DNA of 47,814 bases, taken from an uncultured Bacilli bacterium. Lineage in GTDB: Bacteria; Bacillota_I; Bacilli_A; RF39; UBA660. Shown here in pieces: positions 14,385 through 42,729 of this stretch. The first letter of the stretch is position 1. Every line of letters begins with the position of its first letter. Below the pieces are notes generated by a model that worked only from the letters and a program-made list of their open reading frames with translations, did no database searches and was not told the origin of the DNA. Location of the stretch: NCBI GenBank assembly GCA_944350285.1, contig CALVOL010000002.1, forward strand, positions 1 to 47,814. Reading direction: 5' to 3'. The translations under genes and the position numbers were made by a program.

Positions 14385-15938
14385 TCAATCCTTTTTACTT
14401 TCTATCTCCACAAGTTTCTTTTCCATATCAATACGCATAAATATTGGTTCTGGATTCTCAACCTCATAGACAGTATCTTCACAAAAAGTATTATCTGCAT
14501 CTTCAACATGGATTTGTCTCAAAATTTCCTTGCTAGTATCAGGCATAAATGGAGCAAGTTCTGAGGCACAAACCTTAATACTTTCAAGCAAATGATAAAG
14601 TACGGTAAGAAGACGTTCTTCTTTATCTTCATCCTTCGCCAAAGACCAAGGCATAGTATCATCAATATACTTATTAGATTTTCTTAAAACATCAAAAATT
14701 GCATCAATAGACTTTCCAATTTCAAGATGATCCATACACTCATCCACTTTACCTGGAAGGTTTTGAATACTAGAAATAAATTCTTCATCCAAATCTTCTC
14801 GAATATTTTTATTTTCTACCTTACCATCAAAATATTTCTTTGCCATAGAAATAGTACGATTAACCAAATTTCCTAAGATATTAGCAAGATCCCCATTAAT
14901 ACGTTCAATAATCAGTTCATAATTAATGGTACCGTCATTAGCAAAAGGAATTTCATGAAGCACATAATAACGGATGGCATCAACCCCAAATAAGTGGACC
15001 AAGTCATCAGCATACATAATATTACCTTTACTCTTGCTCATTTTATCATTATTCATTAAAAGCCAAGGATGACCAAATACTTGTTTAGGCAAAGGCAAAT
15101 CTAAAGCCATTAATAAAATAGGCCAATAAATCGTATGAAAACGAATGATATCTTTACCGATCAAATGCAAATCAGCTGGCCACCATTTATGAAATTCTTC
15201 ACTTTCACCATCCACATCATACCCAATATTTGTAATATAATTCGATAATGCATCAATCCATACATAAACAACATGTTTATCATTAAAAGGAACTCTTACA
15301 CCCCAGTCAAAAGAAGTTCTAGAAACACACAAATCTTGAAGTCCTGGTTTCAAAAAGTTATTTAACATTTCATTTTTACGAGACTCTGGTTGAATAAATT
15401 CTGGATGAGTTTCAATATACTCTATTAAACGTTCTTGATATTTTGACATCTTAAAAAAATAAGCTTCTTCACTTCGTTTCTCAACATCTCTACCACAATC
15501 AGGACATTTTCCATCTACAAGTTGAGTTTCCGTCCAAAAAGATTCACAAGGAGTACAATACCATCCTTCATACTGCGATAAATAAATATCCCCTTGTTGA
15601 TACAACTTTTCAAAGATATGCTGAACTACTTCTTTATGATGAGAATCTGTTGTTCTAACAAACTTATCATAACTAGTATTCATAACATCCCAAATTCTTT
15701 TTATTTCCCGGGAAATATTATCCACAAACTCTTGAGGCTCTAACCCGGCTTCTTTCGCTTTTTGTTCTATTTTTTCACCATGTTCATCTGTTCCAGTCTG
15801 AAAATAAACATCAAATCCCCTTGCTCTTTTATAACGTGCAATCGCATCCGCCAAAACAATTTCATAAGTATTCCCAATATGAGGTTTACCAGAAGCATAA
15901 GCAATTGCTGTTGTAATATAATATTTTTCCATAAACAT
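14385..15938 (-). CDS. metG: Methionine--tRNA ligase (short form without C-terminal tRNA-binding domain)
   Basis: 517-aa ORF with HIGN (KPHIGNTYE), KMSKS and a Cys knuckle CTPC...CPDC. The true start may be Met3 (15932). Confidence 0.96.
   Translation of the reverse strand: MFMEKYYITTAIAYASGKPHIGNTYEIVLADAIARYKRARGFDVYFQTGTDEHGEKIEQKAKEAGLEPQEFVDNISREIKRIWDVMNTSYDKFVRTTDSHHKEVVQHIFEKLYQQGDIYLSQYEGWYCTPCESFWTETQLVDGKCPDCGRDVEKRSEEAYFFKMSKYQERLIEYIETHPEFIQPESRKNEMLNNFLKPGLQDLCVSRTSFDWGVRVPFNDKHVVYVWIDALSNYITNIGYDVDGESEEFHKWWPADLHLIGKDIIRFHTIYWPILLMALDLPLPKQVFGHPWLLMNNDKMSKSKGNIMYADDLVHLFGVDAIRYYVLHEIPFANDGTINYELIIERINGDLANILGNLVNRTISMAKKYFDGKVENKNIREDLDEEFISSIQNLPGKVDECMDHLEIGKSIDAIFDVLRKSNKYIDDTMPWSLAKDEDKEERLLTVLYHLLESIKVCASELAPFMPDTSKEILRQIHVEDADNTFCEDTVYEVENPEPIFMRIDMEKKLVEIESKKD
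15702..15717. promoter_or_regulatory. Noc-binding-site (NBS) palindrome TATTTCCCGGGAAATA, inside metG
   Basis: Perfect 16-bp palindrome containing the B. subtilis NBS core ATTTCCCGGGAAAT. It is read as N-I-S-R-E-I in metG. Confidence 0.7.
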
Positions 15939-15950
15939 CGTCCTCTCTAA

Positions 15951-16697
15951 TTAATATCCACCGTCTATCACAATATTTTCTCCATTAATATAAGTATTTT
16001 CTTCACTACTTAAATAGTATACTAAGCTAGCAATTTCTTCTGGCTCAGCAAACCTTTTTAAATAAATTTTAGAGCTTTCTTCTAAAATCAAATCTTTTTC
16101 TAAATCTTGGTTCATTTCCGTATTAATCCATCCAGGAGATACAGAATTTACTAAAATTTTAGGAGCATACTCAATCGCAAAATTTTTTGTTAAATTAATA
16201 ATAGCGGCTTTACTAGCATCATAATCAATACTGGTAGGAAAATTACAATCAATTCCATTAGTACTTGCAATATTCACAATTTTAGAAATATCACTACTAG
16301 AATACATTAGTTTACCAAAATATTTACACATTAAATATGTTCCTGTAATATTATTTCTAATTGTTTTCTCAAATAATTCAGTAGATCGTTTGCTAACGTC
16401 CATATCTTCTACAATTGCAGCATTATTAACTAAAACATTTAAATTCGAATACTGTGTTTTAAATTTTTCTAACATATTTAAAACATCAACCTCAACAGAG
16501 ACATTTCCACACAAAACCAATACTTTCACAGAATATTTTTTCTCAATATCAAATTTAATTTGTTTACATTCTGCTTCGTATTCCTTAAAATCATTAATAA
16601 CAACATCATATCCGTTTTGAGCAAATTTATAAGCGCAAGCCTTGCCTAGACCACGTCTAGTACCTGTAATTAAAGCTACTTTTGTCAACAACATCAT
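15951..16697 (-). CDS. Short-chain dehydrogenase/reductase (FabG-like SDR)
   Basis: Motifs TGTRRGLG (TGxxxGxG), NNAA and YDASKAA (YxxxK). The start is placed at MMLLTKVALITG, after the GGAAAGG SD. The ORF-track extension to 16745 runs through an NBS palindrome and the T-box terminator. Confidence 0.85.
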   Translation of the reverse strand: MMLLTKVALITGTRRGLGKACAYKFAQNGYDVVINDFKEYEAECKQIKFDIEKKYSVKVLVLCGNVSVEVDVLNMLEKFKTQYSNLNVLVNNAAIVEDMDVSKRSTELFEKTIRNNITGTYLMCKYFGKLMYSSSDISKIVNIASTNGIDCNFPTSIDYDASKAAIINLTKNFAIEYAPKILVNSVSPGWINTEMNQDLEKDLILEESSKIYLKRFAEPEEIASLVYYLSSEENTYINGENIVIDGGY

Positions 16698-16705
16698 CCT
16701 TTCCA

Positions 16706-16727
16706 AATTATTTCCCGGGAAATAATT
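16706..16727. promoter_or_regulatory. NBS palindrome, 22-bp extended form AATTATTTCCCGGGAAATAATT
   Basis: Perfect 22-bp palindrome lying between the T-box terminator T-run and the SDR Shine-Dalgarno. Confidence 0.7.
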
Positions 16728-16730
16728 AAA

Positions 16731-16925
16731 AAAAATCATAAACAAAAGGACGAGAAACCCGCGGTACCACCTTTATTTATGATTTTACTCATACACTTAT
16801 TACGATAACGGTGTAATCCGTTTCAACTCCAGAGCCATCTTCTATAGAATTCCATTATTTACTCTCAGCTAACGTAAACTCTCTTGAAATATCCTTCTAT
16901 ATACTCTTTCCTTCCTCATTGAATA
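16731..16925 (-). ncRNA. T-box riboswitch leader, probable Met specifier, controlling SDR-metG
   Basis: The minus strand carries the diagnostic T-box sequence GGTGGTACCGCG (plus 16761-16772). A long terminator helix AAAATCATAAATAAAGG/CCTTTTGTTTATGATTTT plus a T-run follows. AGAGA-type stem I elements are present, and GAAGAUGG supplies a candidate AUG specifier (16836-16838). Confidence 0.75.
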
Positions 16926-16930
16926 ACTTA

Positions 16931-21292: not shown

Positions 21293-21318
21293 AAAATTAT
21301 TTCCCGGGAAATAATTTT
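21293..21318. promoter_or_regulatory. NBS palindrome, 26-bp extended form AAAATTATTTCCCGGGAAATAATTTT
   Basis: Perfect 26-bp palindrome spanning the methyltransferase stop codon and the pth SD region. Confidence 0.7.
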
Positions 21319-22027
21319 ATTTTCTAAATATATTTTGATAACTTTCTTTATTTTCTATAGATAAAAAAGGTTTTACTTTACACCCAAATTTACCATCTTT
21401 CACAAGACAAACTAAAACAATAATTGGTGCTTCACTATCTTTAGATGATATAAACTGTATCTCCTTGATAGAAAAACCGTACTGATGGGCATACACGCAA
21501 ATTTCTTCGATACGTTCTGGAATATGTACTAAATAAAACCTTCCTTTAGCTTTTAATAAATAACTAGTTACTTTAATAAGTTGTTCTAAAGAAATCTTTA
21601 ATTCATGTCTGGCAATACCTTTCATAAGATTATCATTCACAAAATGCGTATGATGATACTTAAAATAAGGTGGATTCGATAAAACAACATCAAAATTATT
21701 TCCCGGGAAATAATTTTTTAACGCTAAAACATCGTCATTTATTATCTTAATTAATGATTCCATTGAATTATAAATCACTGACTCTTTAGCAAGATTAGCG
21801 ATCTCTTCTTGAATTTCCACGCCAATAACCTTTTTTTGATATTTGTGAGCCAATAAGATAGGAATGACTCCATTACCAGTACATAAATCTATAATTTGTT
21901 GATCATCTTTTTTAATAGTTGCAAACTCTGCTAACAAAATAGAATCTAAAGAAAATTTAAACCCATCTTGAAACTGATAAATTTTTAAATTAGGATAATC
22001 ATATAACCAATTAAGAACCTTTTTCAT
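21317..22027 (-). CDS. SAM-dependent N6-adenine methyltransferase, YabB/TrmN6-like (tRNA1(Val) m6A37 type)
   Basis: 236-aa ORF with the SAM motif DLCTGNGVIP and the catalytic NPPY (VLSNPPYFKY). Confidence 0.8.
   Translation of the reverse strand: MKKVLNWLYDYPNLKIYQFQDGFKFSLDSILLAEFATIKKDDQQIIDLCTGNGVIPILLAHKYQKKVIGVEIQEEIANLAKESVIYNSMESLIKIINDDVLALKNYFPGNNFDVVLSNPPYFKYHHTHFVNDNLMKGIARHELKISLEQLIKVTSYLLKAKGRFYLVHIPERIEEICVYAHQYGFSIKEIQFISSKDSEAPIIVLVCLVKDGKFGCKVKPFLSIENKESYQNIFRK
21692..21717. promoter_or_regulatory. NBS palindrome, 26-bp form, inside the methyltransferase gene
   Basis: Identical 26-mer to the one at 21293-21318. It is read as K-N-Y-F-P-G-N-N-F just upstream of the NPPY motif. 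Confidence 0.7.
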
Positions 22028-24501: not shown

Positions 24502-24798
24502 TTACATCAAACCATCTAACATACCAGCATATTGTCCTAATTTAGCTTCATACTCTTTTTCAATTTTTTGAATAGAATCCTTTACTGCCATAATAATAAA
24601 GTCTTCTAGCATTTCAATATCTTCTTTTGCTAATTCTTCTTTGTTAATCTTACAACTAACCATTTCTTTCTTACCATTTAAAGTAACTTCTACAAATTCA
24701 TATTTCCCGGGAAATAATTGCCCGCTTATTTCATCTTTCTTTTTTTGTAAATCTCTTTGCATTCTTTGTGCTTGTTGCATAATACTTTGCATATTCAT
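24502..24798 (-). CDS. ybaB: Nucleoid-associated protein YbaB/EbfC (YaaK)
   Basis: 98-aa ORF with an M/Q-rich N-terminus MQSIMQQAQRMQRDLQKKKDE and a dimerisation core. Synteny is dnaX-ybaB-recR. Confidence 0.92.
   Translation of the reverse strand: MNMQSIMQQAQRMQRDLQKKKDEISGQLFPGKYEFVEVTLNGKKEMVSCKINKEELAKEDIEMLEDFIIMAVKDSIQKIEKEYEAKLGQYAGMLDGLM
24701..24716. promoter_or_regulatory. NBS palindrome TATTTCCCGGGAAATA, inside ybaB
   Basis: Perfect 16-bp palindrome. The higher-coordinate arm continues to match the extended consensus (..AATT). It is read as L-F-P-G-K-Y in ybaB. Confidence 0.7.
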
Positions 24799-24819: not shown

Positions 24820-26469
24820 TTATATTAATTCTATTTTATCACGACTAAACACATTTGTCGCGACAAATTCTAAATCTGATTGAGATTTAGGCTTTAAATT
24901 TTCTATAGATTCTTCTGAAATAATAGCATATGGTTCTTTATTCTTTAAATGCGTTACATAAATTTGTTTTTCTTTTACCCATTCATCCTCAGATAAGCAA
25001 ATAAAATGGATCTTCTTAGAAAAGAAATTTTCAACTTCTTGACTTAAATCATCCAATTTACTATTAATTAAATTAACGGTACTGGAAAGATTAGACGTTA
25101 AAATACAATAATCAGAAGAAGAAGCTACAATATTCGAATCTAAAATAAGCGATAGTATATCTGGCTTTAAATCTAATCCTTGCTTTAAATCTTGCCATAT
25201 TTTTTGATATTCAATCAAAACATCTTTCTTAGCGCCAGCAAAACAATTATTAATTCTGATTTTACTTAATTCTTCAAAATAATGTTTATATTCTTCTTTT
25301 TCTTTCAAATTAGCATTAGTTTCTTCTGGTTTTTCTTCAATTTGACTAATAGAGACAACACTTTCAGGTTCACTCTTTATAACAACATTTTCTTTATTTT
25401 TCGATGTATTATTTAACGTTACAATTTCAGTTGTATTAAAACCCATATGATCTAATAGAATAAGTTCTATCAGCAAAAATGGATTCACATTAATGTTTAT
25501 TTTATTCATACATTCATTCAATTCAAAAATAATGCCCTTTACTTGACTATAATCTAAACCACTAGAATTAAGATTTTGTTTCAATTCTATAGCAATATGA
25601 GATAACTCTTGAACTAATTTTTTAATAAAAATTTTATAATCAGAAGAAGAATTTTGTAAATCCTTAATAGCATTTTCTATCGCATCAACATTATTTTCTT
25701 CTATATTTTGAATTAAATCACGAATAAATTTTGTAGAAATAGACCCATAATTAGCCAAAATTTTATCTACTGTAATCTTCTCACGATTAGAAGATAGCTG
25801 ATCCAAAAGACTTAATGCATCTCTCATACCACCCTCAGATAAATAAGCAATTTCTTCTATCGCTTCCTCATCTATCTCGATATTTTCCTGTTCACACACA
25901 TAAGAAATTTGCTTTTTTAAGTCTTCCATTGAAAATTTACGGAAATTAAACCTTTGACATCTAGATAAAATCGTAATAGGAACACTTTCTACATTCGTCG
26001 TAGCCATAATAAAAATAGCATGACTAGGAGGTTCTTCAAGTGTTAATAATAAGGCATTAAAAGCACTGGAAGTCATCATATGAACCTCATCAATAATATA
26101 AATTTTGTATTTTCCCTCTGTTGGAGCAATCTTTACATTATTAATAAGTTCCCTAATATCATCAACACCATTATTAGAAGCCGCATCAATCTCTATAATA
26201 TCCGGACTGGAATCAAAAGATAAACAACTTGGACATTTACCACAAGCTTCACCATTTTCAATATGCTGACAATTAATTGTTTTAGCAAAAACCTTTGCAG
26301 TACTTGTCTTTCCTGTTCCGCGAGGGCCAGTAAACAAATAAGCATGCGATATTTGATTATGAATAATTGCATTTTGAAGCATTTTAATCGTATAATCCTG
26401 ACCTATAATATTTTTAAAACAATCTGGTCGATATTTTCGATACAAAACTTTATATTCCATGCTGAACAA
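24820..26469 (-). CDS. dnaX: DNA polymerase III subunits gamma/tau
   Basis: 549-aa ORF with Walker A GPRGTGKTS, IIDEVHM, a zinc module CGKCPSC and SRCQRF. The start may be Met4 (26460). Confidence 0.96.
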   Translation of the reverse strand: MFSMEYKVLYRKYRPDCFKNIIGQDYTIKMLQNAIIHNQISHAYLFTGPRGTGKTSTAKVFAKTINCQHIENGEACGKCPSCLSFDSSPDIIEIDAASNNGVDDIRELINNVKIAPTEGKYKIYIIDEVHMMTSSAFNALLLTLEEPPSHAIFIMATTNVESVPITILSRCQRFNFRKFSMEDLKKQISYVCEQENIEIDEEAIEEIAYLSEGGMRDALSLLDQLSSNREKITVDKILANYGSISTKFIRDLIQNIEENNVDAIENAIKDLQNSSSDYKIFIKKLVQELSHIAIELKQNLNSSGLDYSQVKGIIFELNECMNKININVNPFLLIELILLDHMGFNTTEIVTLNNTSKNKENVVIKSEPESVVSISQIEEKPEETNANLKEKEEYKHYFEELSKIRINNCFAGAKKDVLIEYQKIWQDLKQGLDLKPDILSLILDSNIVASSSDYCILTSNLSSTVNLINSKLDDLSQEVENFFSKKIHFICLSEDEWVKEKQIYVTHLKNKEPYAIISEESIENLKPKSQSDLEFVATNVFSRDKIELI

Positions 26470-26515
26470 ACCTCCATATAAGCATAACTATTATACCAAA
26501 TATCAAAAAAGAACA

Positions 26516-26944
26516 CTATCTTTTTTGTTGAAAAAATGATTTAAGTAATTTATGATACATTTGTTCGTGTTCGTTTTCGTCATTTTCATAAAATTTTACA
26601 AATTTTGTCTTTGAAAATTCTTTTTTATAGTCCAATTTATCCAAAAGATAGTAAACATTAGCAATTCTGGACTGTTTAATCACTTCATAACACATAGAAC
26701 AAGGCTTTAATGTAACATAAATGCTGCAATCTGATAAATTCCATCGTTTTAAACGTTCTGAAGCTTGAAGAATAACATTTATTTCTGCATGTCCTAAAAT
26801 ATTATGCTCTATTTCACGAGTATTATGAGCAGAAGCCAATATTTCATTATCCTTAACCAAAACAGCACCAATTGGAACATCTCCTTGATTATAGCTAATT
26901 TTTGCCTCACTTATACACAAATCCCATATTTCTTCTATTTTCAT
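26516..26944 (-). CDS. tadA: tRNA-specific adenosine deaminase TadA
   Basis: Deaminase motifs HAE (GHAEINV) and PCSMC. The start is placed at MKIEEIW, after a GGGAG SD. The ORF-track extension to 26971 would overlap the SRP RNA. Confidence 0.9.
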   Translation of the reverse strand: MKIEEIWDLCISEAKISYNQGDVPIGAVLVKDNEILASAHNTREIEHNILGHAEINVILQASERLKRWNLSDCSIYVTLKPCSMCYEVIKQSRIANVYYLLDKLDYKKEFSKTKFVKFYENDENEHEQMYHKLLKSFFQQKR

Positions 26945-26963
26945 AAAATTCTCCCAAAAAAAA

Positions 26964-27045
26964 GTGCACACAAACAGTGATTGACGTGGCTGCTATCTTC
27001 CGATCCTGACCAGGTTACAATATATTTGTTGCACGTACAAAGAAT
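26964..27045 (-). ncRNA. ffs: Small (4.5S-type) signal recognition particle RNA
   Basis: The minus strand contains the domain IV core ACCUGGUCAGGAUCGGAAGAUAGCAGCC. The ends GUGCAACAAA / UUUGUGUGCAC pair to close one long hairpin, followed by a T9 run. Confidence 0.8.
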
Positions 27046-27080
27046 ATCAAATTTTTCACAAAAATGCAAATATATTCTTA

Positions 27081-27110
27081 ATGTTTCACGTGAAACATCA
27101 GTTATTAACA
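27081..27110 (+). promoter_or_regulatory. parS unit a: TGTTTCACGTGAAACA plus TTATTAACA
   Basis: Perfect palindromic parS 16-mer at 27082-27097. After a 3-nt gap (CAG) comes TTATTAACA, which matches TTATCCACA at 7/9. Confidence 0.75.
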
Positions 27111-27167
27111 AAAAACATCATTTATGATTTTAATATTTATTCTTCTACAATTTAAATACAGCAAATT

Positions 27168-27196
27168 ATGTTCCACGTGGAACGTTGTTATCCACC
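27168..27196 (+). promoter_or_regulatory. parS unit b: TGTTCCACGTGGAACG plus TTATCCACC
   Basis: parS 16-mer at 27169-27184, one position off palindromic symmetry. A TG spacer is followed by an 8/9 DnaA box at 27188-27196. Confidence 0.75.
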
Positions 27197-27361
27197 TCTT
27201 TTTTTTAATTAAAATGAAAGTTTCATTTTTTGAAAAAAATACTAAAAATTTAAAAAATAAGAGTAAAAAAATAAATAAAATCGCATTTTGACTATAAAAA
27301 GCCTCCTTATCAACAAAAAAATATCAATAAATATAAAATTAATAATCCATAATGTTATCAT

Positions 27362-27390
27362 ATGTTTCACGTGGAACATTGTTATCCACT
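27362..27390 (+). promoter_or_regulatory. parS unit c: TGTTTCACGTGGAACA plus TTATCCACT
   Basis: parS 16-mer at 27363-27378. A TG spacer is followed by an 8/9 DnaA box at 27382-27390. Confidence 0.8.
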
Positions 27391-27655
27391 TTTATTTTCA
27401 GACTAATTTTTTAATTAAAATTTAAACTATTACAGGTAATTATGAACTATTTCCAAAACAAACTAATTATCAACACAACCACAAAAAAAATTAAATCGCA
27501 TTTTTATAAATAGCTAAATTAAAAATATATAAATTAATAAAAACAATAAGAAATAGCAAAAAAAGTATTAAAATCTAGATGTTTTTAAAAAATTTTAAAT
27601 AGAATTTAACTTTATATTAAGAAAATAGTATTTATATACAAAATATTTTTATTTA

Positions 27656-27684
27656 ATGTTTCACGTGAAACATAGTTATTCACT
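27656..27684 (+). promoter_or_regulatory. parS unit d: TGTTTCACGTGAAACA plus TTATTCACT
   Basis: Perfect palindromic parS at 27657-27672. An AG spacer is followed by a 7/9 DnaA box at 27676-27684. Confidence 0.75.
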
Positions 27685-27752
27685 TGCAATTAATTCGAAT
27701 AAAAAAATGATTTATAATTAATTATCTTTCTATTTACAAGAATTTTATAGGA

Positions 27753-27783
27753 ATGTTCCACGTGGAACATTCACTTATTAACA
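27753..27783 (+). promoter_or_regulatory. parS unit e: TGTTCCACGTGGAACA plus TTATTAACA
   Basis: Perfect palindromic parS at 27754-27769. After a 4-nt gap comes TTATTAACA (27775-27783, 7/9). Confidence 0.7.
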
Positions 27784-27952
27784 ATTTTATTTAAGTTCAA
27801 TACATAAACTTATACACTCAATACTTTTTTAATTAAATTTAACAAAATTTATCAAGATCAATATAAACTTTTTAAGAAATAACAGTATTTATACATATAA
27901 AAGCTACACATCAATAAAAATCAAATCATTTTTCTTTATTACATTTTATTCT

Positions 27953-27981
27953 ATGTTTCACGTGGAACATTGTTATCCAGT
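27953..27981 (+). promoter_or_regulatory. parS unit f: TGTTTCACGTGGAACA plus TTATCCAGT
   Basis: parS at 27954-27969. A TG spacer is followed by TTATCCAGT (7/9) at 27973-27981. Confidence 0.75.
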
Positions 27982-28189
27982 TTTAAATACATAAAAAAAT
28001 CAAATCAAAATAAATTAATTCTATTAAAAATAATATATAAAAATATAAATAAAAATAAAATGATAATGGTATAAAATAAATAAAGTTATACACGAAAGCA
28101 GCAAAAGAATTAACTCAAAATCATATTTTACAAACAATTCTTTTCAAGATTTATAGTGAAAGGTTTGATTTAGCATTATTAAATACATT

Positions 28190-28218
28190 ATGTTCCACGT
28201 GAAACATAGTTATCCACA
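28190..28218 (+). promoter_or_regulatory. parS unit g: TGTTCCACGTGAAACA plus perfect DnaA box TTATCCACA
   Basis: The parS at 28191-28206 is identical to the B. subtilis spo0J-type site as I recall it. An AG spacer is followed by a 9/9 DnaA box at 28210-28218. Confidence 0.85.
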
Positions 28219-28226
28219 TCTTGCCA

Positions 28227-28244
28227 ATGTTCCACGTGAAACAT
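28227..28244. promoter_or_regulatory. parS unit h: TGTTCCACGTGAAACA (no adjacent box)
   Basis: parS at 28228-28243, 37 bp centre to centre from unit g and 19 nt beyond the gyrA stop codon. Confidence 0.8.
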
Positions 28245-28262
28245 TAAAAAAGGAAAAGCCAT

Positions 28263-30713
28263 TTACGACTCTTCCTTTGCTTCTTCAATAACATCAGAAG
28301 GATTTTCCTCCTCATGTTCAACAATACTAATTGTCGAAACATTTTGATTATCTTTTAGATGTATTAAACGAACTCCTTGTGTTACTCTACCCAAAGTAGA
28401 AACTTGAGCTAATGGTAAGCGAATTAACATACCTGTATTTGTAATAATTACAACATCACTATTATCACTAATCAATTTAAATGACGCAATAGAACCATTC
28501 TTATCTGTAATATTAAGAGCTTTTACACCTTTACTTCCACGACTTGTTTCTCTAAATTCACGAACATATGTTTGTTTCCCGTAACCTTTCTCAGTTACAA
28601 TTAAAATTTTATCATCATCAGAAGCAATTTCAGCACCGATACAAACATTATCTTCTAAATTAATACCCTTAACACCACTAGCTGTACGTCCCATAGGTCT
28701 TAAAGAATTCTCATTAAACTTAACCATTCTACCAGAACTAGAACCGATTAAAATCATATCATTTCCAGTAGTTTTACGTACACTAATAAGCTCATCTGTA
28801 TCACGTAGAGTAATACAAATCTTACCATTTGTTCGAATGTTATCAAACTCTTCTATAGCCGTTTTCTTAACAATTCCCTTCTTAGTAGCAAATAACAAAT
28901 ACTTATAAGTATTATCCCTACTAATTGTAATTAAAGAATTAATAGATTCATCCTTGTCAATTTGTAATAAGTTGATAACCGGAATTCCCTTAGATTGACG
29001 GCTAAATTCAGGAACTTCATAACCCTTTAATCGATAAACCTTACCCTTATTAGTAAAGAATAATACATAATCATGTGTGGATAAGTTAATCAAGTGCTCT
29101 ACAAAATCCTCATCATTTGTAGTCATACCTTTTACACCGACTCCGCCACGATTTTGCGATTTAAAGGTATCAGTAGTAGTTCTCTTAATATAACCTTTAT
29201 TCGTTAATGCAATCATAATATTTTCTTCTGGAATTAACGATTCATCCTCAATATACTCGATAGCAGTCATATCGATATTAGTACGACGTTCATCAGCATA
29301 TTTATCCTTAATTTCAAGAAGTTCAGAACGAATAATAGCTAAAACCTTCTCATCACTAGCTAAAATAGCCTTTAACTCTTCAATTTTCTTTAATAAGTCA
29401 TTTAATTCAGCTTCAATCTTTTCCTTCTCTAAGCCTGTTAAACGACGCAATCTCATCTCAAGAATAGCATCACATTGAAGTTCAGAAAGACCAAATCGAC
29501 TCATTAAAGTTTCCTTCGCTTGAACATCTGTTCTGCTGCCACGAATTATCTTAATAACTTCATCAATATGATCCAAAGCAATTTTCAAACCTTCTAAAAT
29601 ATGAACTCTTGCTTCGGCCTTTTCTAAATCAAAACGTGTTCTTCTAACAATAACTTCCCTTTGAAAGTCAATATATTTACTAATAATATCTTTAAGACCA
29701 AGAGTTTTTGGTACTCCTTGATCAATCATTAAAAGAATAATTCCATAAGAAGTTTGAAAAGAAGTATGTTTATACAAGTTATTCAACACAACTTGTGGAT
29801 TTGCATCTCTCTTTAATGTAATTGTTATCTTAATACCATCTTTTAAATCAGAATGATAATCTGCAATTCCATCAATAATCTTATTATGAACAAGTTCGGC
29901 AACCTTATTTTTTAACTCCAAAGTATTTACACCATAAGGAACCTCATCAAATACGATTTGATAACGACCATTTTTCTCTTCTATACTAGCCTTACTTCGA
30001 ATAGTAATAGTACCACGACCTGTTTCATAAGCCTTTTTAATACCACTATTACCTAAAATAGTCGCGCCAGTAGGAAAATCTGGCCCTTTAATATATTGCA
30101 TAAGTCCTGCAGTATCAATATCTTGATTATCAATGTAAGCAACACATCCATCGATAACTTCCCCCAAATTATGTGGTGGAATATTAGTAGCCATACCTAC
30201 CGCAATACCCATAGTACCATTGACTAAAATATTAGGAAATCTACTTGGTAAAACAACCGGTTCTTCCTCTAATTCATCAAAATTTGGTGTCATATCAACA
30301 GTATTTTTATTAATATCCCGTAGTAATTCTGCTGATATTTTAGCAAGTCTTGCTTCGGTATAACGCATAGCTGCAGCTCCATCACCATCCATATTACCGA
30401 AATTTCCATGTCCATCTATTAAAGGATAACGATAACTAAAATCTTGAGCCATACGTACCATTGCATCATAGATAGAAGAATCCCCATGTGGGTGAAATTT
30501 ACCCATGACGTCACCAACGATACGAGCACATTTTTTATGTTGCTTATCATTCGTATATCCAGACTGATACATAGAAAACAAAATTCTTCGATGTACGGGC
30601 TTTAATCCATCTCGCAAGTCTGGTAAAGCACGTGCCGTAATTACACTGACAGAGTAATCAACAAAGGATTGACTAACTTCAGAAACAATATTATTTTTCT
30701 CTATACGATCCAT
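28263..30713 (-). CDS. gyrA: DNA gyrase subunit A
   Basis: 816-aa ORF with the active-site Tyr context AAAMRYTE, the QRDR-like [17 protein letters not shown], and beta-pinwheel repeats in the C-terminal domain. Confidence 0.98.
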
Positions 30714-33822: not shown

Positions 33823-34284
33823 TTATTTAAAACGTTTTTTTGAAGTTTTTCTCCCTCTTAAAGTACTTTCCAATCTTGTAGCTCTAAGAATTTGATTATC
33901 GATAATTCCATAAGAATAATTTAAATAAATTTTTCGTTTATTTTCAAATTCTATAACTAATAAATTATTTTCCATATAATAATTCTTAATATGCTTTAGA
34001 CTTATCCACACACTATCTTGATATCGACTAGAAGAAGTAGGAAAAAAAATCATTTCTTTCGATTCTTCCACTATAATAGGCGCTTTATAAGTAACACCGA
34101 TCATATCAGCAGTACCTTTACGACGTCCTTCTAAACTACTTCCAAAATAAAGACAACTATCTTCCATAATTTTCGTAGTACTCTTATTAACATGAATAAC
34201 TTCATCAAACTCATAAACTTCTGAATTATGTTCATTAATAGGCAAAATTGCTAATGTTTCTTCATTAATTTCATAATTTTCCAA
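33823..34284 (-). CDS. comK: ComK-family competence transcription factor
   Basis: 153-aa ORF with a TTG start after a GGGGGGA SD. It aligns block by block with B. subtilis ComK as I recall it: YEINEETLAILP / YEVNGATIAVLP, DSCLYFGSSLEGRRKGT / RSCRFFGSSYAGRKAGT, KAPIIVEES..IFFPTSSS...VWIS / KPPIMVDPS..FLFPTLSS...GWIS. Confidence 0.8.
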   Translation of the reverse strand: MENYEINEETLAILPINEHNSEVYEFDEVIHVNKSTTKIMEDSCLYFGSSLEGRRKGTADMIGVTYKAPIIVEESKEMIFFPTSSSRYQDSVWISLKHIKNYYMENNLLVIEFENKRKIYLNYSYGIIDNQILRATRLESTLRGRKTSKKRFK

Positions 34285-35542: not shown

Positions 35543-35623
35543 GGTGGATAATGTGGATAACTTTGAATATCCCTTATAAATTCCACATCCATTGTCGAAT
35601 TTTGTCGTGGATAACTATTCACA
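35543..35623. promoter_or_regulatory. oriC downstream DnaA-box cluster (dnaA-dnaN spacer)
   Basis: GGTGGATAA (35543-35551, 8/9), TGTGGATAA (35552-35560, 9/9 reverse box), CGTGGATAA (35606-35614, 8/9) and CTATTCACA (35615-35623, 7/9). Confidence 0.8.
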
Positions 35624-35642: not shown

Positions 35643-37034
35643 TTACATCTTATTTTGTATCTCTTTAATCTGATTTGCTACCATAGGATTCTCCTTAATA
35701 TCCATAGCTATTTTATCACAAGCGTGGATAACTGTCGAATGGTCTCGTCCACCAAACTCAAGCCCTATTCGATTTAAGTTTTCCTCCGTAAGTTGTCGTG
35801 ATAAATACATCGCAATTTGTCTTGGATAAGCAATATCTGCACTTCTTCTCTTTCCTTTTAAGTCATCTACCGTAATTTTAAAGTAATCAGCTACTGCTTT
35901 TTGAATTCCCTCAATACTATTAGTTTTATAGATATTGTGATTAACGTAATCCCCAAGTGCCTCAATTGCAAAATTTAAATCGACTTTCTCTGGAACAATC
36001 ATTGCTGTATAGGCCATTAACCGGTTCAGCGCTCCTTCTAAAAATCGAACATCATTTTGACAATTATTTGCGATATATTCAATAACATTTTCATCAATTC
36101 TAGTCGAAATTGTCATATTTTTAAGCTTAGCTGTAATAATTTTACATCGCAAATCAAAGTCCGGTGGATAAATATCTACAGGAAGTCCCCACATAAACCG
36201 ACTTCTAAGCCTTTCTTCTAACAATTTCAAGTCATCAGGACTCCGGTCAGAACTAATAATAATCTGTTTATTTGCTTGATGTAAGGCATTGAAAGTATGG
36301 AAAAATTCTTGCTGAGTCTTTTCAGCACCGACAAGATACTGAATATCATCAATAATTAATACGTCTACTTCCCTATATTTCTTTTTAAAATTAGCCGCAC
36401 TTTGAATATTATTCTTATTATCACTATTTATAATGTTGATGTATTCATCTTTGAACATTTCACTTGTTGTGTATAACACCTTTTTTTTCGTGTGTTCTAC
36501 TATATAATTGCCTATCGCATGCATTAAATGAGTTTTTCCTAGTCCACTCTTTCCGTAGATAAATAAAGGGTTATGCACTTTTCCCGGTTGCTCCGCAACA
36601 ATCATCCCAGCCGTTTTAGCTAGTCGATTAGAATCCCCTACTACATAGTTATTAAAGTTTAATTCAGGAATTAAATTCGTTTCCCATTCTTCATAAGTAG
36701 TCTCTACATTATCTACATAAGTAGGAATTGGAGAAAAGTTATCCACATTATCCACATTTTTCTGAACTTCTAATAAATCATCATCAATTTCCTCTTTTAA
36801 TAAAAATTCAAATTCATAATTATGATTAGATACTTTATAAAAAGCATCATCAATTAAATTATAATAATTAGTTGTAAGAATTCGTTTATGTATTTCCATT
36901 GGAACTTGAATATATACTTTATTATCTTTAATCTTAATAAGCTTTAAATCATTAAACCAAGCATGAAAAGAAGCGGAATTTACTTCTGGATAAATTTCAT
37001 TTAATACCGATTGCCAAAGATCTTTTTCATCCAT
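35643..37034 (-). CDS. dnaA: Chromosomal replication initiator protein DnaA
   Basis: Start placed at MDEKDLWQSVL after a GGGGTGG SD. Walker A GKSGLGKTHL, Walker B LIIDDIQ, and the domain IV segment IAYPRQIAMYLSRQLT...FGGRDHSTVIHA are present. The ORF-track start at 37100 is an extension. Confidence 0.97.
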   Translation of the reverse strand: MDEKDLWQSVLNEIYPEVNSASFHAWFNDLKLIKIKDNKVYIQVPMEIHKRILTTNYYNLIDDAFYKVSNHNYEFEFLLKEEIDDDLLEVQKNVDNVDNFSPIPTYVDNVETTYEEWETNLIPELNFNNYVVGDSNRLAKTAGMIVAEQPGKVHNPLFIYGKSGLGKTHLMHAIGNYIVEHTKKKVLYTTSEMFKDEYINIINSDNKNNIQSAANFKKKYREVDVLIIDDIQYLVGAEKTQQEFFHTFNALHQANKQIIISSDRSPDDLKLLEERLRSRFMWGLPVDIYPPDFDLRCKIITAKLKNMTISTRIDENVIEYIANNCQNDVRFLEGALNRLMAYTAMIVPEKVDLNFAIEALGDYVNHNIYKTNSIEGIQKAVADYFKITVDDLKGKRRSADIAYPRQIAMYLSRQLTEENLNRIGLEFGGRDHSTVIHACDKIAMDIKENPMVANQIKEIQNKM

Positions 37035-37116: not shown

Positions 37117-37244
37117 TTTTCCACAACTTATCAACATTACAACCCAGCATAAAACCTACAAAAAAAGCAGTTATCCACATTATCCACAAATTTTTATTCA
37201 CATCGAAGTGTATAAGTGAAAACTGTGTATAAAAATTATCCACA
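37117..37244. promoter_or_regulatory. oriC upstream DnaA-box cluster (dnaA-rpmH spacer)
   Basis: TTTTCCACA (37117-37125), TTATCAACA (37128-37136), tandem perfect TTATCCACA boxes (37171-37179 and 37180-37188), TTATTCACA (37194-37202) and a perfect TTATCCACA (37236-37244). Confidence 0.88.
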
Positions 37245-37362
37245 TGATGTGAATATGTGTATAAATGTCGAAATATGTCGATAAAATAAGGAAAAATAAA
37301 AGAAACAAAATGTGAATAGTTATAAACAATAAGATTTTAACTGTCCAGATTTCAAGAAAAGA

Positions 37363-39708: not shown

Positions 39709-40664
39709 ATGAAAATTACAAAAGCTTATCAGTTTCGACTTTATCCAACTAAGGAACAGGAAATACTCATTCATAAAACATTTGGATGTACAAGATTTCT
39801 ATATAATCAAATGTTAGAGGAGTAAAAGAAAGCTATCGGACTAATTGTAATAGAAGTAGTTATAAAGAAAAAGAATATGCTAGTATTGAAGTAGATATGA
39901 AAGAAAAAACAATTACTTTACCTAAATTAAAGAAAGTAAAAATAAGAGGATATCGTAATTTAGAACAGTTACCAGGAAGAATACTTAATGCCACGATAAA
40001 ACAAGTAGGATATAAATACTATGTAAGTGTTTGTGTCGAAGAAGAAGTAGAAATTCCTGTTATGAGTGAGAAACGAGCTATCGGGATTGATGTTGGAGTC
40101 AAAAACATGGTAGTGACTAGTGATGGTGAGTATTATGAGAATCCTGATTTTCTAAAGAAATATGAAAGAAGAATCCAAGGGTATCAACAAGAATTATCCA
40201 GAAGAAAAAAAGGAAGTAAAAACTATGAGAAAACTTTAAGAAAAATAGAAGAACTCTATCGAAAACTCAAAAACGCAAGAAAGAAATATCTAGAAGAAGT
40301 TGTATCTAAGATATTAAAAGGAAAAGAAATTATATTAGCAGAAAGATTAAAAGTCAAAGAGATGTTATCCAAAGAAAAGAATCCCAAAAGTGTAAGAAAG
40401 AGTATTAGTAATGTTAGTTTTCAAACAATCTTACAAACAATAGAGTACAAATGTAAATGGAGTGGGAAGACGTTTCATCAAATATCTACTTATTATCCAA
40501 GTAATCAAATCTGTAGTGAATGTGGATATAAAGATAACACCATGAAAGATTATGGAAAAAGAGAATACATTTGTCCGGTTTGTAAGACGAAGATAGAAAG
40601 GGACTACAATGCAAGTAGAAATATTTTACAAGAGGGATTAAGAGAGATAAAGATAGCATCATAA
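39709..40664 (+). pseudogene. tnpB: IS200/IS605-family TnpB (OrfB) RNA-guided nuclease gene, disrupted
   Basis: The N-terminal 38 codons MKITKAYQFRLYPTKEQEILIHKTFGCTRFLYNQMLEE end in TAA at 39823-39825. The 255-aa ORF at 39897-40664 keeps RuvC-I GIDVGVKN, RuvC-II LAERLKVKEM, the Zn finger CSECG...CPVC and RuvC-III RDYNASRNI. Only about 70 nt link the two parts, where roughly 100 aa would be expected. Confidence 0.8.
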
Positions 40665-40759
40665 ATAAAATGAAATAAAAAATAGTACGGGGGCGACCCT
40701 CGGAAATGTGGTCTCTGTAAAAAGAGAAAAGGAATACCGTGAGGTATTCCAAGGGAAGA

Positions 40760-42729
40760 AATAGAAAATTTATTGTTACAATTCACAGCTGATGAAAGTG
40801 GATAAGTAGCTAAGTTGCCCACAAAATGCGATAAAATCGGGAAAAATCGCATTTTTTTGTTGCAAAATTCTAAGAATTATGATTAATTGAAAAAGAATGG
40901 AAGGCGAAATAATATGAAAGATTTTACAGCAAAAGAATTAGAAAATCTATTTAGTAAAAAACAATTGTCAGCCTATAATCAAAAATTAAAAAGAGAACTT
41001 TATTTATTAAAAATGGATTACCATAAAGTTTTAGTAACACGAGACAGTTATATAGAAAAAGAAATAAATAAAAGAGAACATGATCTTCAAAAAGAATGGA
41101 AACATAAAATAAAAATAGTAGAATTAAAAGCAAAAATAAGTATAGATTTACTGAATCGAAAAGAAAAGAAAATAAGAACTATAGAATTAATACATCAAAA
41201 AGAAATGGAAGCAAAAGATGCGTTAATTGAAGCAAAAGATATAGAACTCGAAAAAAAAGATGCGCTAATTGAAGCAAAAGATGCAGAAATACTAAGATTA
41301 CAAAAAGAACTAGAAAAAAGAGACATCTTATTAAATAGTAATGGAACCAATAGTTCAATACCAACAAGTCAAACATCAATAAGCATGAAGAAAGTGATTC
41401 CAAATTCAAGAGAGAAAAGTGAAAAAAACAAGGGAGGACAAATCGGACATAAAAAACATAAATTAGAGAAATTTAAAGATGAAGAAATTACAGAAATTCG
41501 ATATGAAGAGCTAGAAGAATGTACACAATGTCATCAAAAGCATTTAGAAGAAACAGGAAACGTAATTTATAAAGATAGCTATGAATATCGAATCATAGTA
41601 GATAAAGTGAGAACTGGATTTAAAGAATATCGATGTAAGGATTGTGGAAAAATTATAAGAAAAGCGATACCCGATAATTTAAAAGAAGAAAATCAATATG
41701 GAAGTAGTATACAAGGATTAGCATTAGGACTTATGAATATCGGAAATGTCCCAATAAATAAAGTAAAAAGAGTAATAAGTGGTCTTACAATGGGAGAAAT
41801 AGAATTAAGTGAAGGATATATTTCAAAATTAACGAAAAGAGCAAGTAAAATAGTAGAACCATTTCTAAAAGAAGTACAGGCAAAGATTTTAGAACTTTCA
41901 AAAATCCATTGGGATGATACAGTAATCATGATCAATACAAAACGATCATGTATGAGATTTTATGGAGATGAAAGATTAGCATTATATAAAGCACATGAAA
42001 AGAAAAATATGGAAGGATTAGATAAAGACAATATATTGAATTTACTAAATCAAGAACAGATGGTTATCCATGATCATAATAAAGTAAATTACAATACGAA
42101 ATATGCTTTCATGAATGTAGAATGTAATGCCCACTTATTAAGGGATTTACAAAAAGTAAGTGATAATATTCCGGAAAGAACATGGGCAAAGTTATTAAAA
42201 GAACATATCCAAAATTATAATCATAAAAGAAATACATATTTAGAAGAAGGAAAAGAAGAATTTAATGAAGAAGAAATCAATGAATATTTTATGAAATTAG
42301 ATGAATATATCATTCTAGGATATGAAGAAAATGAGCAGAATAACAAGCCATACTACTCCCAAACAGAAAAGAATTTACTAGATCGAATTGTAGAATATCG
42401 GGATAATTACACTTATTGGGTATTAGATTTCGGAATTCCTCTTACCAATAATATAAGTGAGAGAGCTTTAAGAGGAGTTAAGACAAAGATGAAAGTATCT
42501 GGGCAGTTCCAAAACCTATCAAGTGCTGAGTATTATGCAAATATAAGAAGTTACATTGAAACATGCCATAGAAATGGTATTAATGAGCTGGAAGCATTAC
42601 AAAGATTAGCATCAGGCAATCCGTTTACTTTAAGTGAAATTCTAAACAATCAAAAAAATTAGCTATAATTGCTAACTTTTTTGTATGCTACAATCTTTGG
42701 CTGTGAATTGTAACAATTTATTTTCTATT
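40760..42729 (+). mobile_element. IS66-family (single-ORF, ISBst12-like) insertion sequence
   Basis: Terminal inverted repeats ATAGAAAATTTATTGTTACAATTCACAGC (40761-40789) and GCTGTGAATTGTAACAATTTATTTTCTAT (42700-42728) match at 27/29 and flank one transposase ORF. Exact ends and the target duplication are unresolved. Confidence 0.7.
40914..42662 (+). CDS. IS66-family transposase
   Basis: N-terminal coiled coil with a duplicated KDALIEAKD, a Zn-finger region (CTQCH...CKDCG), DDE-type blocks HWDDTVIMIN, IHDHNKVNY and ECNAHLLRDL, and the C-terminal PLTNNISERALRGVK. The ATG at 40914 follows a GGAAGG SD. The ORF-track start is a TTG at 40887. Confidence 0.8.
   Translation: MKDFTAKELENLFSKKQLSAYNQKLKRELYLLKMDYHKVLVTRDSYIEKEINKREHDLQKEWKHKIKIVELKAKISIDLLNRKEKKIRTIELIHQKEMEAKDALIEAKDIELEKKDALIEAKDAEILRLQKELEKRDILLNSNGTNSSIPTSQTSISMKKVIPNSREKSEKNKGGQIGHKKHKLEKFKDEEITEIRYEELEECTQCHQKHLEETGNVIYKDSYEYRIIVDKVRTGFKEYRCKDCGKIIRKAIPDNLKEENQYGSSIQGLALGLMNIGNVPINKVKRVISGLTMGEIELSEGYISKLTKRASKIVEPFLKEVQAKILELSKIHWDDTVIMINTKRSCMRFYGDERLALYKAHEKKNMEGLDKDNILNLLNQEQMVIHDHNKVNYNTKYAFMNVECNAHLLRDLQKVSDNIPERTWAKLLKEHIQNYNHKRNTYLEEGKEEFNEEEINEYFMKLDEYIILGYEENEQNNKPYYSQTEKNLLDRIVEYRDNYTYWVLDFGIPLTNNISERALRGVKTKMKVSGQFQNLSSAEYYANIRSYIETCHRNGINELEALQRLASGNPFTLSEILNNQKN

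Follow-up and report, generated by a model that had tools for sequence, protein, structure and literature searches.

A parS array paired site by site with DnaA boxes, a putative origin-proximal centromere of Candidatus Ventrenecus and related uncultured gut Bacilli

The stretch of DNA analysed here, 47,814 nucleotides of contig CALVOL010000002.1 from an uncultured Bacilli bacterium (hereafter the window), contains a block of 1.2 kb between gyrA and ffs, the gene for the small signal recognition particle (SRP) RNA, that carries eight palindromes of the parS type. Nearly every parS in this lineage has its own DnaA box 2-3 bp away, and free-standing boxes lie between the pairs. ParB and DnaA would thus bind the block side by side, and the pairing, which related species share, suggests a link between the initiation of replication and chromosome segregation at the level of the DNA. 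With a probability of roughly 0.5, the block is an origin-proximal centromere, i.e. a putative ParB-loading parS array, that doubles as a DnaA-box cluster, the two being coupled in cis through their proximity. Judged by the sequences compared below, the holders of a locus of this type are Candidatus Ventrenecus and related uncultured gut Bacilli.

Eight parS sites between gyrA and ffs

A scan for the parS consensus TGTTNCACGTGNAACA with at most two mismatches gave eight matches in the 47.8-kb window, all of them inside the block. By chance 0.06 would be expected, and none of 100 shuffled sequences reached eight. The 16-mers start at 27082, 27169, 27363, 27657, 27754, 27954, 28191 and 28228, exactly where the initial annotation had placed them; seven are perfect and one, parS b, has a single mismatch. 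All eight are embedded in the 18-bp palindrome ATGTTYCACGTGRAACRT, and the clade-wide parS logo is the 18-bp ATGTTNCACGTGNAACAT. The agreement with TGTTNCACGTGNAACA bears out their earlier identification as canonical parS, the 16-bp palindromes of chromosomal centromeres. A G at position 1 and an A at position 6 place them in the parS type and not in that of the Noc-binding site (NBS), ATTTCCCGGGAAAT. With the same pattern and threshold no parS was found outside the block in the window, as had been judged by eye, and none was seen in the 15 kb beyond mnmG. The sites are as follows (no strand assigned).

27081..27098, parS a, 18-bp palindrome ATGTTTCACGTGAAACAT, with the putative -35 hexamer of ffs 13 nt downstream
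27168..27185, parS b, 16-mer with a single mismatch (...GGAACG)
27362..27379, parS c, from the pattern scan
27656..27673, parS d, from the pattern scan
27753..27770, parS e, from the pattern scan
27953..27970, parS f, from the pattern scan
28190..28207, parS g, from the pattern scan
28227..28244, parS h, gyrA-proximal, without a box

The 16-mers extend from 27082 to 28243, between the gyrA terminator and ffs. An equivalent gyrA-proximal first parS without a box is present in nearly all relatives. The distances from parS to parS are irregular (37, 87, 97, 194, 200, 237 and 294 bp); Tandem Repeats Finder (TRF) reported low-complexity A/T repeats only and no tandem array spanning the parS sites of the window, which do not have the head-to-tail arrangement with constant period of a plasmid-type centromere. 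Because of the irregular spacing, the TRF result and the lack of plasmid homology of the block, a tandem-repeat, CRISPR-like or mobile-element origin was rejected.

The possibility of an assembly artefact, raised in the initial annotation, was met by independent assemblies that reproduce the block. Contig L001 is 100% identical across it, and contig L021, from a metagenome-assembled genome (MAG) of another study in NCBI, has the same eight units at 90.6% identity.

DnaA boxes beside the parS sites

The motif GTTAT(C/T)CA follows five of the parS sites (units b, c, d, f and g) at a fixed distance. The corresponding composite, CACGTGNAACNTNGTTATNCA, was found at five places in the window (0.00 expected), in agreement with the five units originally described. 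The box at 28210-28218 is indeed a perfect 9/9 DnaA box, TTATCCACA, and the box-like motif reported for units a and e was recovered as TTATTAACA, 3-4 nt past the palindrome. Every box in the block has the same orientation, again as first observed. The 1.2 kb hold five boxes with at most one mismatch and four with two mismatches. All of the boxes listed are on the plus strand.

27102..27110, plus, weak DnaA-box-like TTATTAACA by parS a, two mismatches
27188..27196, plus, DnaA box TTATCCACC, one mismatch, 3 nt past the parS b 16-mer
27307..27315, plus, free-standing DnaA box TTATCAACA, one mismatch, oriented like the others
27382..27390, plus, DnaA box TTATCCACT, one mismatch, 3 nt past the parS c 16-mer
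27467..27475, plus, free-standing DnaA box TTATCAACA, one mismatch, oriented like the others
27676..27684, plus, DnaA box TTATTCACT, two mismatches, 3 nt past the parS d 16-mer
27775..27783, plus, weak DnaA-box-like TTATTAACA, two mismatches, 5 nt past the parS e 16-mer
27973..27981, plus, DnaA box TTATCCAGT, two mismatches, 3 nt past the parS f 16-mer
28210..28218, plus, perfect DnaA box TTATCCACA, 3 nt past the parS g 16-mer

The weak motif beside parS a is kept in the related loci L009 and L003, even though L003 does not have that parS.

The earlier assignment of the flanking motif to DnaA is supported by its distribution. The pattern GTTATNCAC has 13 copies in the window where 1.0 would be expected; five belong to the block and all the others, eight, to the oriC/dnaA region. 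The same variants (TTATCAACA, TTATTCACA, TTATACACA and TTATCCACT) are used in the blocks and in the rpmH-dnaA and dnaA-dnaN spacers of the respective genomes, so that block boxes and oriC regions have a common variant spectrum (seven loci), with perfect boxes rarer in the block (11%) than at oriC (37%). The DnaA protein is canonical, with Bac_DnaA and Bac_DnaA_C domains. The flanking motif is, as far as these comparisons go, the organism's own type of DnaA box. Since the boxes are clustered above chance in non-coding DNA, are of the oriC type and are conserved in relatives, the block qualifies by its sequence as a DnaA-box cluster (DBC). The dnaA open reading frame (ORF) itself contains two abutting perfect DnaA boxes at 36739-36756 and further copies of GTTATNCAC (also at 35724, 36469 and 36570).

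Clusters of DnaA boxes at 35543-35614 and 37117-37284 mark oriC. It sits at dnaA because the dense boxes coincide there with the switch in GC skew, which flips at about 37 kb and stays negative across the block. The block is thus about 7-10 kb from oriC, close to the 7-9 kb first estimated, and belongs to the origin-proximal domain; the combination of a skew switch with dense boxes by dnaA is not found at the block itself.

Conservation of both halves and geometry of the pairs

The gene order on the minus strand of the window is dnaA, dnaN, a ComK-family gene, recF, gyrB, gyrA, the block, ffs, tadA, dnaX, ybaB and recR. Orthologous gyrA-tadA spacers were collected via GyrA homologues of 97-80% identity, a choice independent of the motif. 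All spacers of these relatives contain 5-12 parS, and in species selected by the pattern the array occupies the same spacer down to 65% GyrA identity. Adjacency was counted in 22 related loci with 145 parS, with positions in the same AT-rich spacers as a control. A box with at most one mismatch lies within 6 nt of parS in 78 of the 145 cases (54%, control 1.7%), and the share rises to 74% (control 7.6%) if two mismatches are allowed. The motif-independent subset gave 28 adjacent boxes for 54 parS. An adjacency explained by local composition, which had been named as a refutation, is at odds with this roughly 30-fold excess over the spacer background.

The other proposed refutation was that relatives keep the parS and let the boxes drift. 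The opposite was observed. Between the window and L003 (GyrA 97%), boxes are 92% identical, parS 77% and spacer 42%, and in L003 three parS have decayed while their boxes are intact. Conservation outside the parS-plus-box stretch is nil, including the left flank of the palindromes as initially noted, and stops sharply at the box edge. Comparison of the sequences shows both halves, parS and box, to be under purifying selection.

A strict form of the composite, TGTTNCACGTGNAACANNGTTATNCAC, was found in 21 stretches among 185,579 species genomes (one genome per species). The gyrA-tadA spacer of related MAGs with GyrA identities of 65-100% accounts for 18 of them; outside the Ventrenecus-related clade there are only three singletons, located elsewhere. 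In the MAG of the species itself the composite is confined to this locus. Conservation of the feature extends to more than 20 lineages at the species level.

The initial annotation had described a hard-wired module of about 29 bp, and this part did not stand, as relatives vary both in gap (2 or 3 bp on one side, 0-2 on the other) and in orientation relative to parS, the box being flipped on the other side. The 78 adjacent boxes are distributed as follows: on the gyrA side, 36 at a gap of 3 bp and 25 at a gap of 2 bp; on the other side, nine at a gap of 1 bp and three, all in L023, at a gap of 3 bp as the mirror image of the main type; and five in as many one-off placements. Left- and right-side units occur in one array in L010, L015 and L029, alternating in the last, and L011 has mainly right-side units. 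By arithmetic from the gaps, the box and the nearer parS half-site are 9.5-11.5 bp apart from centre to centre, about one helical turn. The sequence TGTGGATAA is on the gyrA-sense (leading) strand in 74 of the 78, and the free-standing boxes of the clade number 17 in the shared orientation (1.9 expected) and none in the other. Because the side varies and the closeness is constant, a steric or proximity-based effect would be favoured over a single ParB-DnaA contact surface. Helical phasing of the units gave a weak 10.5-bp signal (R = 0.25) in which orthologous spacings are counted repeatedly, and it is not relied on. An extended palindrome as an explanation of the flank was rejected, the mirror sequence being absent on the other side of each parS.

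parS arrays elsewhere

Metagenomes were scanned for two parS 70-100 nt apart. Dense parS clusters were found at at least 120 metagenome loci with a GC content of 24-70%, most of them beside rsmG, parB or mnmG, and with up to 28 parS per array among the matches listed. The approximately 560 parS of at least 120 unrelated clusters have an adjacent box in about 1.4% of cases, which is the chance level. In eight of the matches listed, from low-GC relatives at a greater distance, the array again lies between gyrA and tadA. Six of these eight outgroup arrays have no adjacent box. The spacers have 0-2 boxes each: L037 and L149 have one non-adjacent box each, and the two boxes of L058 are both beside a parS (within 4 nt). 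In a rough GyrA tree, strong coupling falls in one core clade and is patchy in sister lineages. The parS array is on this evidence old, and DnaA-box coupling a later, clade-specific addition.

The unusualness claimed in the initial annotation has to be divided accordingly. The array itself is ordinary, given the at least 120 clusters and the box-free arrays in the same spacer of outgroups; what stood is the coupling of boxes to individual sites, set against 1.4% adjacency elsewhere. This per-site coupling appears to be what is new, within known crosstalk between initiators and centromeres, and a full-text search of the literature returned no description of a repeated parS-plus-DnaA-box unit.

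Some arrays have an architecture of their own. Seven 38-bp tandem units are present in the gyrA-tadA spacer of L134 (892-1137), and 45-bp tandem units, some of these repeats being perfect, in those of L066 (747-852) and L126 (3066-3171); these outgroups do have the constant period of tandem centromeres. Large arrays are L061 1044-2027, with 15 parS in 968 bp upstream of dnaA, L104 with 14 parS in 851 bp, and L059 with 28 parS across 6 kb.

A proposed mechanism

In the proposed mechanism, the boxes of the block, which mostly have one mismatch, would draw on the same DnaA that initiates replication at oriC, 7-10 kb away, and would be occupied by it. As the box is about one helical turn from the nearer parS half-site, bound DnaA would abut the ParB nucleation complex and would sterically gate ParB loading, or clamp escape on the box side. 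ParB occupancy would in turn affect the retention of DnaA. Centromere assembly and DnaA sequestration near oriC would in this way be coupled in cis. Steric gating between DnaA at its box and ParB nucleation or clamp escape seems the most likely form of such a coupling. In a stronger version, parS-plus-box would be a true bipartite operator at which DnaA, probably in the ATP form on sub-consensus boxes, directly gates ParB clamp loading or one-sided escape, or at which ParB loads or evicts DnaA. This version is put forward tentatively and is rather unlikely to hold.

The cognate ParB and other points against coupling

Several observations weigh against a coupled centromere and DnaA-box cluster. 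Searches by tblastn over the accessible DNA, which reaches about 37 kb to one side of oriC and about 25 kb to the opposite side, and Pfam scans of the window ORFs yielded neither a spo0J-type parB nor soj. Likewise, no ParB of the parS type (R173...G201 in the helix-turn-helix, HTH) was found in the window, L001-L035 or L012-L014, and no ParA-type gene in the accessible DNA. The ParB-family protein that is encoded nearby, a 402-aa product of a gene downstream of mnmG-rsmG in L012 (5919-7127; same species), just past the right end of the window, is Noc-type. Its best family is TIGR04285 nucleoid_noc (NCBIfam), its closest solved relatives in PDB are Noc structures, and its HTH QSSIANKLRLLNL...ERHAR gives Q-K-N-R at the four positions that discriminate Noc from ParB. 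At these positions Noc has QKKR and ParB RTAG, and parS-specific variants invariably have R first (PMC7383237). The 402-aa protein as cognate ParB, together with the absence of ParA inferred from it, was rejected on the basis of NCBIfam, the PDB alignments and the specificity residues. Five perfect NBS ATTTCCCGGGAAAT, against 0.16 expected, are present in the window, with which a Noc-type protein is consistent.

15703-15716, perfect NBS
16710-16723, perfect NBS
21299-21312, perfect NBS
21698-21711, perfect NBS
24702-24715, perfect NBS

The five NBS and the parS block indicate that separate repertoires of NBS and parS exist side by side in the organism. A cognate ParB is probably encoded elsewhere in the genome, because perfect parS arrays are deeply conserved. 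ParB without ParA occurs in some Firmicutes, and ParA does not strictly define a centromere.

All five NBS are on one replichore, 2-11 kb beyond the parS block. In L017 (175-210) an NBS-like palindrome, ATTTCCCGGGAAA, lies 7 nt past the gyrA-proximal parS, so that Noc and ParB sites are nearly adjacent. The 402-aa protein is without the N-terminal membrane-targeting helix of Noc and has an extra C-terminal region of about 200 aa without a family match. In the usual place after noc, soj and spo0J are absent and a ComGC-like pilin gene is found instead.

The remaining counter-arguments concern the pairing. The pooled loci are related, and the adjacency counts are not independent events. The variable geometry of box and parS argues against one specific ParB-DnaA contact. 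Boxes are weak or missing in the array-bearing L004, L026, L030, L037, L087, L089, L126 and L149, and the coupling may be dispensable. Finally, arrays grow by duplication, as in the 38- and 45-bp tandem units of outgroups with their unrelated flanks, and co-amplification makes a fixed spacing possible without function.

Alternative explanations

The last point leads to the main alternative, which is to be taken seriously although we consider it unlikely. An independent parS centromere and a box cluster that titrates DnaA in the manner of the Bacillus subtilis DBCs would share the one long non-coding spacer that a compact genome offers, their spacing being set by co-amplification and homogenisation, and neither would influence the other. 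The gyrA-tadA arrays of L134 (38-bp units) and L066/L126 (45-bp units) have been duplicated with arbitrary flanks, and higher-order two-unit repeats occur in L006, L033 and L035. Two independent elements would also agree with the free-standing boxes between units and with the boxes that outlive their parS in L003 and so have value of their own; the DBCs of Bacillus subtilis act in cis apart from parS (PMC3245932). However, at least four box placements recur, all 0-3 bp from a parS, whereas co-amplification alone would tolerate any distance. Furthermore, the only two boxes of L058 are both within 4 nt of a parS, and conservation stops sharply past the box.

A flank that is not bound by DnaA is improbable. 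It would be an extended recognition element of ParB or the site of another factor, e.g. a regulator of ffs-tadA-dnaX. The footprint of the clade's own ParB is not predictable, most boxes are imperfect (11 of 145 are perfect), and position -1 is a G more often in the block (53%) than at oriC (28%). Against this, outside the block the window has members of this 9-mer family only at oriC/dnaA, where the variant spectrum is the same. Relative to parS, which is symmetric, the motif changes both its side and its orientation, and an extended site for a ParB dimer is incompatible with this. The motif also persists without parS, and proximity to a promoter applies to unit a only.

That the block serves as an additional origin of replication or as an unwinding region, as in bipartite origins, is very improbable. 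The GC content of 20% and the oriented DnaA boxes 7-10 kb from dnaA would suit it, but the GC skew flips at about 37 kb by dnaA with its dense perfect boxes and not at the block, where the boxes are 100-300 bp apart and form no tight origin-like cluster, and outgroups keep the array without boxes. Chance, a neutral repeat pattern or an artefact, as might be feared for a metagenome assembly of a low-complexity AT-rich region, is already refuted by the expectations of 0.06 parS and 0.00 composites, by the agreement of assemblies from different studies and by the occurrence in more than 20 lineages.

Comparison with known systems

In B. subtilis, the parS sites are scattered, most of them within genes, and the DBCs lie at loci of their own. 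Its origin region resembles the block in the consensus of both parS and DnaA box and in the origin-proximal position of both elements. Unlike in B. subtilis, the block gathers its parS sites in a single spacer, and the boxes paired with them are only base pairs away. The B. subtilis DBCs restrain initiation, and their deletion is synergistic with the loss of spo0J, so that the two systems already act together genetically, though at separate loci (Okumura et al. 2012, PMC3245932).

Like the block, Escherichia coli datA, which titrates and inactivates DnaA, is a non-coding cluster of DnaA boxes outside oriC, and the block would similarly sequester or modulate DnaA; the organisms are unrelated. 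The function of datA involves IHF, and the locus is not connected with a centromere.

Caulobacter crescentus shares with the block the presence of DnaA boxes within an origin-near centromere region. It belongs to another phylum and arranges boxes and parS differently, and no homology of the loci is implied. We know of no pairing of individual sites at 2-3 bp and no repeated composite units in Caulobacter. The Caulobacter parS region, which contains the DnaA boxes, is a few kb away from the origin, and DnaA bound there has been connected with the onset of segregation (Mera et al. 2014, reviewed in PMC6399470).

On chromosome 2 of Vibrio cholerae, RctB and ParB2 meet at parS2 (rctA/parS2-B) (PMC6399470), and direct contacts between ParB and DnaA have been described for V. 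cholerae ParB1 and the ParBs of Deinococcus radiodurans (PMC7022226). At rctA/parS2-B and at cisII/cisMP of D. radiodurans, a centromere protein and an initiator share a short stretch of DNA and affect each other. Unlike at the block, the initiator of V. cholerae chromosome 2 is RctB, on a secondary chromosome of plasmid origin, and the Deinococcus repeats are not canonical parS. In neither system does a unit of parS and DnaA box recur along an array.

Ordinary chromosomal parS clusters, usually by rsmG/parAB, are like the block in having several to many parS in 0.1-2 kb of non-coding DNA near the origin; unlike it, they have boxes adjacent at chance level (about 1.4%, at least 120 loci). Compared with the tandem centromeres of plasmids, the window array is irregular (37-294 bp) and not tandem.

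The coupling of replication and segregation is understood mainly via indirect routes, e.g. Soj acting on DnaA in B. subtilis, and the few cases of an initiator at a centromere (Caulobacter, V. cholerae chromosome 2) are poorly explained. The box within one helical turn of almost every parS throughout the clade, which in some lineages has moved across the parS and yet stayed close, points to proximity-dependent crosstalk on the DNA. If the coupling is real, it would add a cis-acting mechanism to the coordination of the two processes. A bipartite operator, if true, would be a hard-wired, Soj-independent link of the initiator state to centromere and SMC assembly, and a natural substrate of about 30 bp for the reconstitution of ParB-DnaA crosstalk. 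As both motifs match the B. subtilis consensus, the idea can be tested with existing proteins and strains on DNA of about 30 bp, without culturing the source. If the coupling is not real, the block still shows clearly how two control elements near the origin have merged in a compact genome.

Genomic context and further observations

The block is bounded by the following features.

26947..27045, minus strand, ffs (small SRP RNA), downstream boundary of the block
about 27041-27069, putative ffs promoter TTGCAT-17-TATTCT, identified by eye only, conserved in relatives
28249..28278, minus strand, intrinsic-terminator hairpin of gyrA, whose T-run leads directly into parS h
28263..30713, minus strand, gyrA, upstream boundary of the block, stop at 28263

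The block has a GC content of 20% and, as first reported, no ORF of 60 aa or more between ffs and gyrA. Rfam gave nothing on the block beyond ffs, even at E <= 1, and promoter-like sites are not in excess over shuffled sequences.

The window belongs to 'Candidatus Ventrenecus stercoripullorum', and its GyrA is 99.9-100% identical to that of the chicken-gut MAG of this name. The genus Ventrenecus is placed in NCBI only as Bacteria incertae sedis, and related records are labelled uncultured Bacilli, Tenericutes or Erysipelotrichaceae. The sporulation genes yabP, yabG and bofA are present.

A recombination mosaic is seen around the block (window 24820-30713 versus L021 and L009/L031). The window DnaX is 82% identical to that of the Ca. 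V. stercoripullorum MAG and 95% to that of Ca. V. avicola, and the block is 88-96% identical to that of avicola (spacers 88%, parS 96%) although GyrA is only 86%. In a 98.7% identical strain (L002 3233-3696) an IS200/IS605-type transposase element is inserted at window position 28246, exactly between the T-run of the gyrA terminator and parS h; the contig ends inside the element.

The ComK-family gene (33823-34284) is found between dnaN and recF in every relative examined. Insertions between jag and mnmE, about 3 kb from oriC (39897-42662), comprise a TnpB/IS605 OrfB-like gene and an IS66-family transposase, and contigs from other samples break there. MnmG (45099-47471) has 790 aa; at its N terminus, the usual GidA domains are preceded by a fused GNAT acetyltransferase domain. 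A T-box leader at 16743-16928 is upstream of a short-chain dehydrogenase/enoyl-ACP-reductase-like gene (15951-16745) and metS, and the NBS at 16710 is just downstream of this leader. At the left end of the contig, an Abi_2 (abortive-infection-like) gene at 1259-2185 adjoins an HtrA-type protease.

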